Below are positions 3,663-9,911 of a DNA stretch of 64,000 bases, in pieces. The notes under the pieces were generated by a model. That model was not told where the DNA came from. It saw only the letters and a program-made list of their open reading frames with translations, and made no database searches. The stretch is from Nitrospirota bacterium (lineage in GTDB: Bacteria; Nitrospirota; UBA9217). The translations under genes were made by a program, and so were the position numbers. The first letter of the stretch is position 1. Every line of letters starts with the position of its first letter. The DNA is taken from assembly GCA_963663225.1 (NCBI GenBank), contig OY760142.1, positions 1,856,001-1,920,000 of the forward strand. Direction: 5' to 3'.

Positions 3663-3838
3663 CAAACAAACGGCAGGGTTGAATAATCATAAATTGGGTA
3701 TCAGGAATTAATCTTTGGGAGGGTATTTCCAACAGTGCCGATACCCTTTAAGCTTTTTAATTGTTTGACTTTCTGCATACGCACCGCCTATAATAAAGAC
3801 AATACGAGAACATCCATCCGACTGGCACGGAGGCTGAT

Positions 3839-4543
3839 ATGTCCGGCGCAAAGAAGCTGGGGGAAATGCTGAAAGAAGCGGGTCTCATCGATGATTTCCA
3901 GCTCCAAACTGCATTATCACATCAGCGCAACTGGGGAGGGAAACTGGGCTCCATCCTCATCGAACTGGAGTTCGTCAGAGAAGAAGACATCGCGAGGGTC
4001 ATTGCGCAGAAACTGCACATTCCCCATATTAATCTCTTCGAACCGGAAATTCCCGAAAACATAGTTAAAATGATCAAGTCTGACATTGCAAAAAAATACA
4101 ATGCAATGCCGGTCAAGAAAGAGGGGGGGGCGCTGGTTCTCGCCATGTTTGACCCCTTCGATCTCAAGGCGGCGGATGAGATCCGGTTTATCACCGGCCT
4201 TACCATAAAGCCTACCCTTGCCATGGAGTCAGAAATCAGGGATGCCATCAGAAAATATTACGATGGGGAACGGGTGGACCGCACGCAGGCGAGGTCATTG
4301 TATCATCAACGGGAGAGAGAGCCCGGGAAGATGGAAATTATTCACGCACGGGATCCTATCAAATCGAAAAAACCGGGAACTGATGACGACGCCCCGCTTC
4401 CGGCCAAGGATGCTGCGGCTTTCCAGGAGCTGAGTGATGCCAAGATGCGGATAGATGCGTTGATTGCCTTGCTGATAGAGAAAAAAATAATTACCCGTGA
4501 AGAACTCGTCAGCATGATTTACCAGAAAAAAATAGGACTATAA
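3839..4543 (+). CDS. Stand-alone GspE/PilB N-terminal (MshEN-like) domain protein without ATPase domain
   Basis: KLGEMLKEAGLIDDFQLQTALSHQ...KLGSILIE; LAMFDPFD; no Walker A. Confidence 0.8.
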   Translation: MSGAKKLGEMLKEAGLIDDFQLQTALSHQRNWGGKLGSILIELEFVREEDIARVIAQKLHIPHINLFEPEIPENIVKMIKSDIAKKYNAMPVKKEGGALVLAMFDPFDLKAADEIRFITGLTIKPTLAMESEIRDAIRKYYDGERVDRTQARSLYHQREREPGKMEIIHARDPIKSKKPGTDDDAPLPAKDAAAFQELSDAKMRIDALIALLIEKKIITREELVSMIYQKKIGL

Positions 4544-4586
4544 CCACGGATTGAGACTCCAGAACACACGAGGCAGGGCCGACCAC

Positions 4587-5009
4587 ATGGCAAAGAACGA
4601 CAAAAAGAACAATATGAGTAATATTTTTTTGTTCAGCACGCTGTTGGTTTTTTTTCTGAGCGCCGGCGCGGCGCTCGCGCAGGACCATAACGGGCCCCGG
4701 ATCGAAGTCAGGGAAATGCGGTATGATTTCGGAAAGGTGCCCCAGGGGGAGCAGGCAACCCATATTTTTCAGGTGCGCAATGCCGGGAACGAACCGCTCG
4801 TTATTGACCGGGTTGTTCCGTCATGAGGCTGCTCAGCCGCGGTGATTAGTTCTAATCACCTGGAACCGGGAATTGCCGGGCAGATACAGGTCAGTGTGGA
4901 TACCCGGGGGAGAAACGGTCTCCTCGCGAAATACATCACGATCTATTCCAATGATCGTACGAACCCGGTAATAACCCTGAACGTAACCATGGACATTGTC
5001 AAAAAATAA
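4587..5009 (+). CDS. Exported DUF1573-type Ig-like protein with in-frame TGA at 4824-4826, probable selenocysteine (U-G-C motif)
   Basis: Signal peptide ..AALA|QD; YDFGKV..FQVRNAGNEPLVI..PS*GCSAA..LEPG..IYSND continuing in frame to TAA 5007-5009; start could be 4614. Confidence 0.8.
4841..4860 (+). promoter_or_regulatory. Candidate bacterial SECIS element
   Basis: GGTGATTA-GTTC-TAATCACC hairpin; loop starts with G, 22 nt after the TGA. Confidence 0.7.
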
Positions 5010-5054
5010 CCGGGAAAAAGTGGGAAAACCTGTTTTTAATGTAGAACTATTTCC

Positions 5055-5084
5055 TTGACAATTTTCAGCCCGGTATGTTACTGT
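5055..5084 (+). promoter_or_regulatory. Sigma70-type promoter of aminotransferase-serA-purA cluster
   Basis: TTGACA-18 nt-TACTGT with TGn extension. Confidence 0.5.
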
Positions 5085-5329
5085 CCATATCAGTAAACTG
5101 GTCCATCAGGGTTCCAAACACCCAATAGAGAGGCAGTACGATCTTGAAACAGCACAGACATCCTCAATACCCCAGCGACATGCCTACCCCGGGCATAGGT
5201 CCCGCCCCGGCGGGACTATCTTAATTTTCGTCGCACAAATCAGTCATCTTTTTAACTATATCTCGCTTGCGTATGCTTGCGTTAAAAAACCGACGGTTGT
5301 TTCGTCTTACATTGTTGGAGGGTAACACT

Positions 5330-6469
5330 ATGCAAAAAAAATATCTTTTGGCTCCCGGCCCCACCCCGGTGCCGTCCGAGGTGTTGCTGGCAATGGCCAT
5401 GCCGATTATTCATCACCGCGCACCGGATTTTCTGCCGGTGCTTGATTCCGCCAAAAAAGGTCTGCAGTGGGTTTATCAGACCAAAAACGACGTGTTGATT
5501 CTGTGCAGCACCGGCACCGGCGGCATGGTTGGTGCGGTAAACAACTTCCTGAATCCCGGCGATGATGTCCTCGTAGTGAACGGCGGTAAATTCGGTGAAC
5601 GCTGGACCAATATCTGCAAAGCCTATGGCATGAAAATCGAGGAAATCGTTGTTGAGTGGGGCTATGCGGTAAAACCGGAGCAGGTCGAGGCAGCGCTCAA
5701 GAAGAATCCAAAAATCAAGGCGGTCTTTGTGCAGGCGAACGAGACTTCGACCGGCGTGTACCACGACGTCAAGGCCCTTGCGGCTGTGGTGAAGAAGACC
5801 GATGCGTTGTTTGTCGTTGATGCCATCTCGGCACTCGTTGCACATGATATCAGAACCGACGAGTGGGGAATCGATGTTCTGGTGGGCGGTTCTCAAAAAG
5901 GAGTCATGCTTCCGCCCGGGCTGGCTTTTGTGTCGGTAAGCGACAAAGCATGGAAAATGGCAGATTCCGCGAAGTCCCCCAAATTCTATTTCAACTTCAA
6001 GAAAGAACGCGACAACCTGGCCAAAAATCAGACCAATTTTTCCTCGGCGGTCTCGCTCATCATCGGGTTGAACGCGAGCATCAAATTGCTGCAGGAAGAA
6101 GGGTTGCAGAATGTGTTCGCGCGTCATGAGCGGCTTGCCAATGCAACCCGCGCGGCTGTAGCGGCGCTCGACCTTAAACTTTTCCCCAAGGAAAACCCGA
6201 GCCTCGCCCTCACGGCTATTGAAGCGCCAGCGGGCGTAGACGGCCAGGCGATTTACAAGAACCTCAGGGAGAAATACGGCATCACGGGGGCCGGCGGACA
6301 AGACAAATTAAAAGGAAAAATATTCCGCATTGCTCATCTGGGGTATGCCGATACGTTCGACATCATAACCGCCGTATCCGGCATCGAGATGGTATTGAAA
6401 GGCCTCGGCCACCCGGTGAAACTCGGCGCGGGTGTGGCAGCAGCTGAAGAAATATTAATGAAAAAATAA
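5330..6469 (+). CDS. Class V PLP aminotransferase (alanine/serine-glyoxylate family; probably acts as phosphoserine aminotransferase)
   Basis: GGAGG RBS, ATG 5330; LLAPGPT, NETSTG, VDAIS, GSQKG (PLP Lys), FRIAHLG; adjacent to serA. Confidence 0.9.
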   Translation: MQKKYLLAPGPTPVPSEVLLAMAMPIIHHRAPDFLPVLDSAKKGLQWVYQTKNDVLILCSTGTGGMVGAVNNFLNPGDDVLVVNGGKFGERWTNICKAYGMKIEEIVVEWGYAVKPEQVEAALKKNPKIKAVFVQANETSTGVYHDVKALAAVVKKTDALFVVDAISALVAHDIRTDEWGIDVLVGGSQKGVMLPPGLAFVSVSDKAWKMADSAKSPKFYFNFKKERDNLAKNQTNFSSAVSLIIGLNASIKLLQEEGLQNVFARHERLANATRAAVAALDLKLFPKENPSLALTAIEAPAGVDGQAIYKNLREKYGITGAGGQDKLKGKIFRIAHLGYADTFDIITAVSGIEMVLKGLGHPVKLGAGVAAAEEILMKK

Positions 6470-9685: not shown

Positions 9686-9761
9686 GGGCCGGTAGCTCAG
9701 TTGGTAGAGCACCGCCCTTTTAAGGCGGGTGTCCTGGGTCCGAATCCCAGCCGGCTCACCA
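9686..9761 (+). tRNA. tRNA-Lys(TTT)
   Basis: Cloverleaf GGGCCGG..CCGGCTC-A-CCA; anticodon arm CCGCC-CTTTTAA-GGCGG; T loop TCCGAAT (variant). Confidence 0.93.
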
Positions 9762-9833: not shown

Positions 9834-9911
9834 GTCCCCATCGTCTAGCCCGGCCCAGGACACCGCCCTTTCACGGCGATAACAGGGGTTCGAATCCCCT
9901 TGGGGACGCCA
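9834..9911 (+). tRNA. tRNA-Glu(TTC)
   Basis: GTCCCCA..TGGGGAC-G-CCA; anticodon loop CTTTCAC; GGTTCGAATCC. Confidence 0.96.

Follow-up and report, generated by a model that had tools for sequence, protein, structure and literature searches.

The DUF1573 gene at positions 4587–5009 on the forward strand is very probably a genuine selenocysteine (Sec)-decoded gene in which codon 80, an in-frame UGA, specifies Sec; this reading rests on comparative sequence evidence. The gene lies in a 64,000-nucleotide stretch of a Nitrospirota genome (contig OY760142.1, forward-strand positions 1,856,001 to 1,920,000), referred to here as the window. It is a new, mis-annotated member of a selenoprotein family described since 2007 and not a new kind of protein.

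The gene and its read-through product

The locus contains a single gene that starts with an ATG at 4587, ends with a TAA at 5007–5009 and has one in-frame TGA at codon 80 (4824–4826), after which 60 further sense codons follow (4827–5006). Re-reading the sequence reproduced exactly the open reading frame limits, TGA position and downstream codon count of an earlier note on this DNA. The read-through product is 140 residues long and its translation contains ...VVPS-U-GCSAAVISSNHLEPG... The features of the gene are as follows.

4587..5009 (+): predicted complete selenoprotein coding sequence, 140 codons including TGA as Sec codon 80; orthologues likewise run full-length with one TGA each
4587..4679 (+): putative Sec-type signal peptide, with a basic n-region, a hydrophobic stretch and A-L-A preceding Q32, judged by eye
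4701..4970 (+): DUF1573 (PF07610) Ig-like / ASH-PapD-like domain, residues 39–128, spanning the TGA
4824..4826 (+): probable Sec codon TGA (U80) of the S-U-G-C motif, residues 79–82; a TGA/Cys column in homologues
4830..4832 (+): Cys82 codon (TGC), partner of U80; column C82 is invariant in alignments A2 and A3
4841..4860 (+): candidate bacterial SECIS core, an 8-bp stem with a GUUC loop, supported by folding, covariation, RNAalifold and the bSECIS model

The PF07610 profile matches the read-through protein across the TGA with 84.5 bits against a cut-off of 26.1 (E 5.6e-24; profile positions 1–90 of 98), so that the profile check proposed earlier confirmed the DUF1573 assignment. Residues 41–140 are predicted to form a β-sandwich with a pLDDT of 96–98. 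The top Foldseek matches to this model are ASH/PapD-like/HYDIN domains and PDB 2qsv; a sequence search of solved structures gave no match below E 0.1. Cys82 is the only Cys residue of the read-through product, and the mature protein would carry an exposed Ser-Sec-Gly-Cys turn that joins two β-strands at one tip of the sandwich.

All orthologues for which an ATG start was assigned (22 of the 24 Sec forms) have a hydrophobic N-terminus comparable to that of the window protein, and AF2 models residues 12–29 as a helix, at low pLDDT. From the N-terminus, judged by eye, and this low-confidence model helix, we infer a small exported (periplasmic) protein with a single DUF1573 domain. The ATG at 4614 is a possible alternative start of the coding sequence.

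Open reading frame calling under translation table 11 splits the locus into a 79-aa frame (4587–4826) and a GTG-started 55-aa frame (4842–5009). The close database proteins are only 79-aa fragments that end at the TGA, which is the truncation that the earlier note had foreseen. The gene and its orthologues across the whole Nitrospirota family are mis-called as 79-aa fragments; the alignment together with the SECIS would let this annotation be corrected.

Decoding of codon 80

We found a match to the gene in 33 of 41 related genomes, and 22 of the 24 genomes of the same GTDB family hold a full-length match with exactly one TGA, at 43–97% identity. At the motif column, 24 of the extracted loci have [ST]-U-G-C and 6 have [STP]-C-G-C; the U80 codon itself aligns with TGA in every one of the 24 Sec-form loci and with Cys in all 6 Cys-form loci. 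A wider scan of this column returned TGA in 20 loci and TGT/TGC in 60, where the 20:60 ratio of Sec to Cys is not a frequency, one of the two search patterns (SCGC...) finding Cys codons only. [STAP]-C-G-C aligns to U-G-C in all 60 Cys-form loci of the wider scan and in all 6 of the extracted set, and the S-C-G-C motif that the earlier note gave for this position of DUF1573 domains is indeed found there.

Including a scan of named contigs, 31 distinct Nitrospirota Sec-form genes keep the TGA; these orthologues are kin, and the counts are not independent events. A metagenome contig from a different study spans 4500–5100 with 9 differences and leaves the TGA and the hairpin unchanged, its 2 downstream changes both being synonymous. 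The TGA is therefore not unique to this assembly, a possibility that the earlier note had raised. Purifying selection acts on the codons that follow the TGA, with dN/dS of 0–0.35 in 8 of 8 pairs; before the TGA, the ratio is 0.11–0.28 in the 6 pairs with unsaturated dS. Coverage from run X17, which is labelled RNA-Seq but is probably DNA, is confined to 4984–5100 within this region.

The genome holds the full Sec set of selA, selB, selC and selD, as a search for these genes revealed: a tRNA-Sec with anticodon tca, SelA (520.6 bits), the SelB wing domain (80.2 bits) and SelD (372.2 bits). SelD is itself Sec-containing: its gene has an in-frame TGA, past which an 8-bp stem carries a GUU loop at a distance of 20 nt. 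Of the 24 U-form genomes, 19 yielded a SelA, against 2 of the 8 genomes with the Cys form only; the 5 U-form genomes in which it was not found are 63–96% complete (96% for G012).

A perfect 8-bp hairpin, GGTGATTA-GTTC-TAATCACC, occupies 4841–4860. Its loop lies 22 nt past the TGA (4827–4848) and reads GUUC, beginning with G and then U, in agreement with the earlier description. The bSECIS model as given in PMC13188914 has a loop of 3–9 nt, a stem of 4–16 bp, a G within the first two loop positions, a UGA spacing of 16–37 nt and an energy of ≤ −7.5 kcal/mol. The hairpin fits all of these constraints, with a loop of 4 nt, a stem of 8 bp, G1 and U2, a spacing of 22 nt and an energy of −8.2 kcal/mol for the hairpin alone.

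By itself, the hairpin is only mildly unusual relative to chance. There are 32 perfect 8-bp hairpins with 3–8-nt loops on the forward strand of the window; this density predicts about 0.011 at an admissible distance from any given TGA, and such a hairpin accompanies 10 of the 1234 TGA triplets. The fold of 4815–4885 (71 nt) is not significant alone when compared with shuffles (z = −1.26). Rfam models at gathering thresholds gave two tRNAs and nothing else in the whole window, with no bacterial SECIS match, and a scan of 4540–5340 at E ≤ 1 gave no match.

The hairpin rises above chance because it is conserved and covaries in the orthologues. In alignment A1, 95.2% of the cells of the helix (columns 24–30/37–43) are paired, and 5 of the 7 helix pairs show compensatory, both-side changes, in 25 cells. 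The covariation score was reached by none of 500 shuffles, slid registers are at most 49% paired, and RNAalifold independently predicted the same helix; the hairpin thus passes the covariation check that had been suggested for it. Sec-form genes contain 20 distinct hairpin sequences, and the stem is a clean 7–8 bp in 21 of 24 Sec forms, those of L033, L036 and L041 being shorter or bulged. An in-register hairpin is found in 0 of 6 Cys forms and, in the wider scan, in 0 of 60 (best −5.8 kcal/mol).

The hairpin would sit within the coding sequence, with arms that also encode V-I-S-S-N-H. In helix pair 30–37, a synonymous third position (ATT/ATC, GTT/GTC) is tied to the first position of an Asn/Asp codon, and pair 28–39 ties Ile/Val to a synonymous site. 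Because these pairs link codon sites, RNA pairing constrains the protein sequence, and the gene provides a clean case of an RNA helix that dictates amino-acid choice (Ile/Val, Asn/Asp) within a coding region. We propose that the hairpin is a bacterial SECIS whose G-U apical loop would be bound by SelB carrying Sec-tRNA(Sec), and that SelB would deliver Sec once the ribosome meets the UGA 22 nt upstream of the loop.

The TGA/Cys column, the covarying hairpin, the selection on downstream codons and the Sec machinery all support the proposal of the earlier note that the TGA encodes Sec. It is very improbable that the UGA is recoded otherwise or not only as Sec, either with Cys inserted via the Sec pathway at scarce selenium or by near-cognate Trp/Cys/Arg read-through, to give what is effectively a C-G-C protein. 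Cys insertion through SelA/SelB is possible under selenium limitation, which would accommodate such recoding, as would the 66 homologues in which Cys is functional at the U80 column. However, the gene has a covarying SelB-type hairpin and a complete selABCD set, the U form is linked to the presence of SelA, and a Cys codon, although one mutation away, is found in 0 of the 31 Sec-form genes. Least credible, with next to no probability, is a true stop that leaves a pseudogene or two short genes (79 aa, 4587–4826; 55 aa, 4842–5009) and an incidental or attenuator hairpin: the table-11 calls give exactly both short frames, the 79-aa product stands in public gene calls and the hairpin context is not significant versus shuffles, but a nonsense mutation would not last at one column in 31 genes of 43–97% identity, the Pfam domain runs across the TGA, downstream dN/dS is 0–0.35, half an Ig sandwich would not fold, and the hairpin covaries and is missing in Cys forms.

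Possible roles of the U-G-C turn

With codon 80 read as Sec, the likeliest role of the U-G-C pair, plausible though short of probable, is that of a redox-active selenenylsulfide/selenol–thiol centre, whose electron-exchange partners would be periplasmic thioredoxin-fold proteins or cytochromes. The leads come from sister lineages. The cytochrome c domain PF13442 is fused to 6 of 6 Cys forms in three other Nitrospirota families, and in all 4 loci tested (L037, L038, L039 and L044), the start of the DUF1573–cytochrome c fusion gene is overlapped by a gene for a DsbA-like protein. In L042, the fusion polypeptide continues into a DsbA-like CxxC segment, and the L039 and L044 loci also include an AhpC/TSA-redoxin gene at a greater distance upstream. 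These associations of the sister-lineage Cys forms suggest that the window protein, too, may carry a selenol/thiol redox centre in the periplasm.

At the window locus, the gene stands alone, and neither a cytochrome c nor a DsbA-like gene lies near it; a homologue of either within ~4 kb was found in 0 of 80 further loci (L045–L124; tblastn, E ≤ 1e-4). The conserved neighbours (MshEN, an aminotransferase and SerA) are uninformative on redox chemistry. A conserved element downstream, at 5144–5224, has no Pfam or NCBIfam match in its 26-aa reading, and its predicted helices show covariation in 0 of 14 pairs. In other phyla, the Cys forms consist of DUF1573 domains in tandem and lack redox domains.

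A metal-binding role is possible, at a low probability. The U-G-C turn would then be a site for soft metals or metalloids (Cu(I), Hg, Zn, As, Se) on a periplasmic chaperone or sequestering protein. Small exported β-sandwich metallochaperones exist, and a redox partner gene is present neither at the window locus nor in the 80 other loci; metal-related families (MerP/MerT-like, YHS, CobW-like) are also tabulated beside DUF1573 in reviews. However, two ligands on a single turn make a poor site unless the protein dimerizes, the conserved neighbourhood has no metal transporter or resistance gene, and cytochrome c and DsbA-like modules are the sole informative fusion partners.

The redox reading can be carried further, to a version we regard as unlikely. 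The DUF1573 U/C-G-C domain would be the catalytic part of a periplasmic redox relay not described so far, for which some Nitrospirota would build DsbA-like, DUF1573 (CGC) and cytochrome c modules into one operon or polypeptide; in the window family, it would act as a free-standing selenoprotein in trans with a Sec-containing DsbA-like protein. The genome's own DsbA-like protein also uses Sec, in the motif Y-Q-U-P-H-C. The structural matches, being non-enzymatic ASH/PapD-like domains, weigh against a redox relay. We also considered a replacement of DsbB: DsbB was not found in the genome, but a VKOR-like gene is present (31.9 bits) and leaves no obvious gap in the disulfide pathway, and the idea is retained only as part of this unlikely version.

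It is improbable that the Sec/Cys pair is purely structural, or that the domain serves, as other ASH/PapD-like domains do, as an adhesin or scaffold and has no catalytic role. The best structural matches are scaffolding or adhesive Ig-like domains and the Ignavibacteria and Binatia Cys forms are tandem DUF1573 repeats, as such a role would have it, but costly Sec decoding and a covarying SECIS maintained across a bacterial family would be hard to explain. Known selenoproteins, moreover, are described as mostly redox proteins in PMC9312934 and PMC2398784, which also argues against a structural role. The fusions of Cys forms to cytochrome c and DsbA-like modules give this domain, a 'DUF' since before 2007, its first functional lead open to testing.

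Comparison with known selenoproteins and redox systems

The earlier note left it undecided whether the Sec form was already catalogued, and it is. OS_HP2, a 'DUF1573 domain-containing protein', is among the selenoproteins in PMC1976440 (Zhang & Gladyshev, NAR 2007) and is also in the GOS selenoproteome (PLoS Genet 2008, PMC2398784); a DUF1573 selenoprotein with the motif UGC is given in the reviews PMC9312934 (2022) and PMC13188914 (2026). The window protein resembles OS_HP2, as presented in these sources, in belonging to pfam07610, in its motif (given as UxC or UGC), with Sec at the first Cys of C-G-C, and in its detection by Sec/Cys pairs and a SECIS hairpin. It differs in origin, the original OS_HP2 members having come from Olavius deltaproteobacterial symbionts and ocean metagenomes and the window gene from a Nitrospirota clade. 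The main text of the BSepDB paper mentions neither Nitrospirota nor OS_HP2.

The family also has an NCBIfam model, NF041425 (OS_HP2 family (seleno)protein), which scores 83.7 bits on the protein and 77.1 bits on the genome against a cut-off of 100 that none of the 41 related genomes passes. The family's U/C-x-C motif on a DUF1573 domain is present, as S-U-G-C at residues 79–82. Because the score is below the cut-off, we file the protein under the literature's broader 'DUF1573 selenoprotein, UGC' and not as a member of NF041425; our alignment and SECIS would allow the model to be widened. Through this gene, an uncultured, anaerobe-type lineage of Nitrospirota gains a putatively exported selenoprotein of non-enzyme fold in its selenoproteome.

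Cys-containing DUF1573 proteins, such as PDB 2qsv from Porphyromonas gingivalis and the tandem-domain proteins of Ignavibacteria and Binatia, share the fold (for 2qsv, Foldseek E 1.4e-06, with 22% identity and an rmsd of 2.5 across 111 columns) and the [STA]-C-G-C turn. Unlike the window gene, they have Cys in place of Sec and no hairpin past the Cys codon, and they often contain a second DUF1573 domain and in some cases an additional PapD-like region. The DUF1573–cytochrome c fusions (L037–L040, L042 and L044) are 30–41% identical to the window protein in the DUF1573 domain and share its signal-peptide-like N-terminus and motif column. They differ in having Cys for Sec, a PF13442 cytochrome c domain at the C-terminus with an additional CxxCH ahead of it, and an overlapping or fused DsbA-like gene, whereas the window locus is without such partners.

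Two better-known redox systems invite a functional comparison. The N-terminal domain of DsbD has an Ig-like fold with a redox Cys pair that serves thioredoxin-fold partners, and Mia40 has a CPC motif and passes electrons via Erv1 to cytochrome c. Neither DsbD nor Mia40 is matched in fold or sequence among the Foldseek matches listed, and we claim no membership in either family; the likeness is a functional analogy only, in that a small domain of an oxidising compartment exposes a vicinal chalcogen pair and, in the sister lineages, is joined to DsbA-like and cytochrome c modules. If the relay were true, disulfide formation or reduction would be coupled directly to c-type haem, and the system would be a bacterial analogue of Mia40–Erv1–cytochrome c.

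An in-frame TGA within a DUF1573 gene

The earlier note had read the gene at 4587-5009 as that of a hidden exported selenoprotein, and its ORF, TGA, 60 downstream codons, hairpin and 22-nt spacing proved exact to the base. The features of the region, all in window coordinates, are as follows.

3839-4543, + strand: MshEN-domain gene (PF05157), 234 aa, immediately upstream of the DUF1573 gene
4587-5009, + strand: DUF1573 gene, ATG at 4587, TGA at 4824-4826, 60 in-frame sense codons, TAA at 5007-5009
4841-4848 and 4853-4860, + strand: perfect inverted repeat GGTGATTA/TAATCACC with loop GTTC, 22 nt from TGA to loop
5040-5235: intergenic region between the DUF1573 gene and the aminotransferase gene (5327-6469)
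9686-9758 and 9834-9908, + strand: two ordinary tRNA genes (Rfam RF00005)

A GAGG lies at 4570-4573, 14-17 nt 5' of the ATG. Reading through the TGA yields 140 residues with the motif V-P-S-U-G-C-S-A-A-V-I-S-S-N-H, and Pfam DUF1573 (PF07610) matches this product across the TGA (residues 39-128, E 5.6e-24), in agreement with the proposed family; the second match is a HYDIN/VesB-like Ig domain. On this evidence both halves of the locus are a single predicted domain. Table-11 ORF calling sees two ORFs at the locus, one of 79/91 aa and one of 55 aa that starts with GTG, and the close proteins in a 5.8-billion-protein collection are 79-aa truncations only, so annotation does truncate the gene as had been foreseen.

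The AlphaFold2 model, built from a 30-sequence alignment, is a beta-sandwich (pLDDT 96-98 at residues 41-140, pTM 0.72) in which the S-U-G turn lies between strands 71-78 and 82-86. Residues 12-29 form a low-confidence N-terminal helix that coincides with a putative signal peptide, recognized by eye from a K-rich n-region, a hydrophobic core and A-L-A before Q32, and the protein is probably exported. A sequence search of the PDB gave no significant match; Foldseek matched the model to ASH, PapD-like and HYDIN domains and to PDB 2qsv, a functionally uncharacterized protein from P. gingivalis that has this fold in common with it.

Conservation of the TGA and its hairpin

Of 41 related genomes searched in six frames, 33 gave matches. 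The same GTDB family is represented by 24 genomes; 22 of these have a match that is full-length, contains a single TGA and is 43-97% identical, while the remaining two, at 87% and 90% completeness, gave none. The TGA of the 24 extracted Sec-form loci falls in one column, [ST]-U-G-C, at which six loci belonging to other families of the phylum carry Cys, bearing out the expectation of TGA or Cys at this position. A scan of named contigs gave 80 loci, 20 TGA and 60 TGT/TGC, a ratio that is not a frequency because one of the two search patterns can find Cys codons only. All 20 TGA loci are labelled Nitrospirota, Nitrospiraceae or Nitrospiria, and 13 of them duplicate loci from the 41-genome search; the 60 Cys loci come from Ignavibacteria, Binatia, 'delta proteobacteria' and others. 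The distinct Sec-form genes total 31. An assembly from a different study differs at nine positions across the region, none in the TGA or hairpin, with three conservative replacements 5' and two synonymous changes 3' of the TGA. The TGA is thus not peculiar to one assembly. Some relatives (G007, G019) have two or three TGA-containing DUF1573 paralogues.

The hairpin on its own is weak evidence. Shuffled sequences fold as well as its 71-nt context (z = -1.26), and there are 32 perfect 8-bp hairpins on the + strand of the window, where 10 of 1234 TGA triplets have one downstream at a SECIS-compatible distance. In the alignment of the 24 Sec-form loci, a 7-bp helix (columns 24-30/37-43) is 95.2% paired, with both-side changes in five of seven pairs (25 cells), and none of 500 shuffles equals the real alignment in covariation score or in percentage paired, figures that overstate independence since the sequences are kin. 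With the 3' arm shifted by 1-3 columns, pairing falls to 21-49%, and RNAalifold, unguided, returns exactly this helix. The Sec forms use 20 different hairpin sequences (e.g. GCTGGTT/AACCGGC, CCTTGCC/GGCAAG and GGTGGCT/AGCCATC) around a nearly invariant A-G-T-T-C loop, and the coupling crosses codons: a T/C that is silent in an Ile/Val codon base-pairs with the A/G choosing between Asn and Asp, and an A/G choosing between Ile and Val base-pairs with a silent T/C. A clean 7-8-bp stem is present in 21 of 24, the stems of L033, L036 and L041 being shorter or bulged, and no comparable in-register stem was found in the 6 + 60 Cys forms. The divergent Sec forms L041 and L043 have quite different stem sequences and the same loop.

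Passages of PMC13188914 give the bSECIS constraints as a loop of 3-9 nt with G within the first two positions, usually then G or U, a stem of 4-16 bp, a spacing of 16-37 nt and an energy of at most -7.5 kcal/mol. The hairpin at 4841-4860 lies within all of these limits (4-nt loop, 8-bp stem, G-U, 22 nt, -8.2 kcal/mol), and by this comparative evidence it behaves as a SECIS.

Selection and selenocysteine machinery in the source genome

Across eight orthologue pairs, dN/dS 3' of the TGA is 0-0.35 (Nei-Gojobori), similar after the hairpin codons are dropped, indicating purifying selection downstream; 5' of the TGA it is 0.11-0.28 in pairs with unsaturated dS. The source genome (one contig, 3.26 Mb, 99% complete) encodes tRNA-Sec (anticodon tca), SelA, SelB and SelD. 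SelA is found in 19 of 24 U-form relatives, the five misses being 63-96% complete, and in two of eight relatives having the Cys form only. The conserved TGA/Cys column, covarying SECIS, selection and Sec machinery together support the interpretation as a Sec-decoded DUF1573 gene. None of the three outcomes that the earlier note named as refuting it was observed.

Two further genes of this genome serve as positive controls for the TGA-hairpin arrangement. The selD gene (contig C1, 522460-523788, - strand) has an in-frame TGA (G-A-G-U-A-C-K) with an 8-bp stem and GUU loop 20 nt downstream, and is itself a selenoprotein gene. A DsbA-like/Thioredoxin_4 gene (locus L126, 1405-2004; C1 about 2655339-2655938) has an in-frame TGA in Y-Q-U-P-H-C (U-x-x-C), followed 19 nt later by a 7-bp stem with a GUC loop; its product has a signal-peptide-like N-terminus and is probably another exported selenoprotein. 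The next ORF overlaps the end of this gene, has two CxxCH motifs and by eye is a putative di-haem cytochrome c peroxidase/MauG-like protein. Rfam gives a second tRNA-Sec match (L002, C1:522308-522451, - strand; 48.9 bits versus a cut-off of 47) only bases away from selD on its downstream side; it is 144 nt long against a 91-position model, and ARAGORN called no tRNA there.

Neighbourhood, possible function and the known family

The gene order PP-loop/TtcA-like, MshEN-domain, DUF1573, class-V aminotransferase, SerA holds throughout the 20 Nitrospirota loci, which are kin, as far as their flanks extend, and the MshEN gene is syntenic with the DUF1573 gene in each of the 19 loci whose flanks reach far enough. 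MshEN domains bind c-di-GMP. The MshEN and DUF1573 genes may be co-transcribed, because a promoter-like site lies at 3765-3794, 5' of the former, and no terminator-like site was found between it and 4587. These neighbours are uninformative on chemistry.

The intergenic region 5040-5235 has a promoter-like block (TTGACA...) and, after it, some 90 nt that barely vary from genus to genus and exceed the flanking proteins in conservation. A 25-30-aa ORF can be read in this stretch, with a TTG or GVG start at 5144 (peptide (M)KQHRHPQYPSDMPTPGIGP...), GAGAGG 11-13 nt upstream and a GC-rich hairpin with T-run at 5198-5217 at its end; the ORF is present in 17 of 21 sequences examined, with 5, 7 and 13 variable columns at codon positions 1, 2 and 3. 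Searches against Rfam, Pfam and NCBIfam gave no hit for the stretch, which may encode a small protein or leader peptide or act as an attenuator 5' of the aminotransferase-serA operon.

A functional lead comes from the Cys forms. In three other Nitrospirota families, each of the six Cys forms has a cytochrome c domain (PF13442) at its C-terminus, with an extra CxxCH before it. In four (L037, L038, L039 and L044) a DsbA-like gene (F-F-D-F-F-C-x-H-C) ends at the start of the fusion gene, L039 and L044 have an AhpC/TSA-redoxin gene further upstream, and in L042 the fusion polypeptide runs in frame into a DsbA-like CxxC segment before the locus ends. Such Rosetta-stone-type evidence suggests thiol-disulfide and haem partners for the C-G-C turn, and leads us to prefer the reading in which the Sec form would be a periplasmic selenol/thiol redox centre. 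Three observations count against generalising it: none of 80 loci (L045-L124) has a DsbA-like or cytochrome c homologue within about 4 kb, the Cys forms of other phyla are plain tandem DUF1573 proteins, and the source genome has a VKOR-like gene. DsbB was not found in that genome. A metal-binding role is possible, as is a purely structural one.

The family has already been catalogued. The best NCBIfam match is NF041425, 'OS_HP2 family (seleno)protein', named for 'Olavius symbiont's hypothetical protein 2', which a 2007 paper presented as a new selenoprotein (PMC1976440, Table 2) and the GOS paper of 2008 entered as 'OS_HP2, pfam07610, UxC' (PMC2398784). The reviews PMC9312934 (2022) and PMC13188914 (2026) also include the family. 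The passages available from four papers on the family assign no function to OS_HP2/DUF1573 selenoproteins. Our protein scores 83.7 bits, under the 100-bit cut-off, which none of the 41 related genomes passes. These scores, with the 79-aa database truncations, argue that the Nitrospirota clade is a sister group missed by current annotation. Because the OS_HP2 family is already known, novelty here would be limited to this mis-annotated clade and the functional lead from domain fusions.
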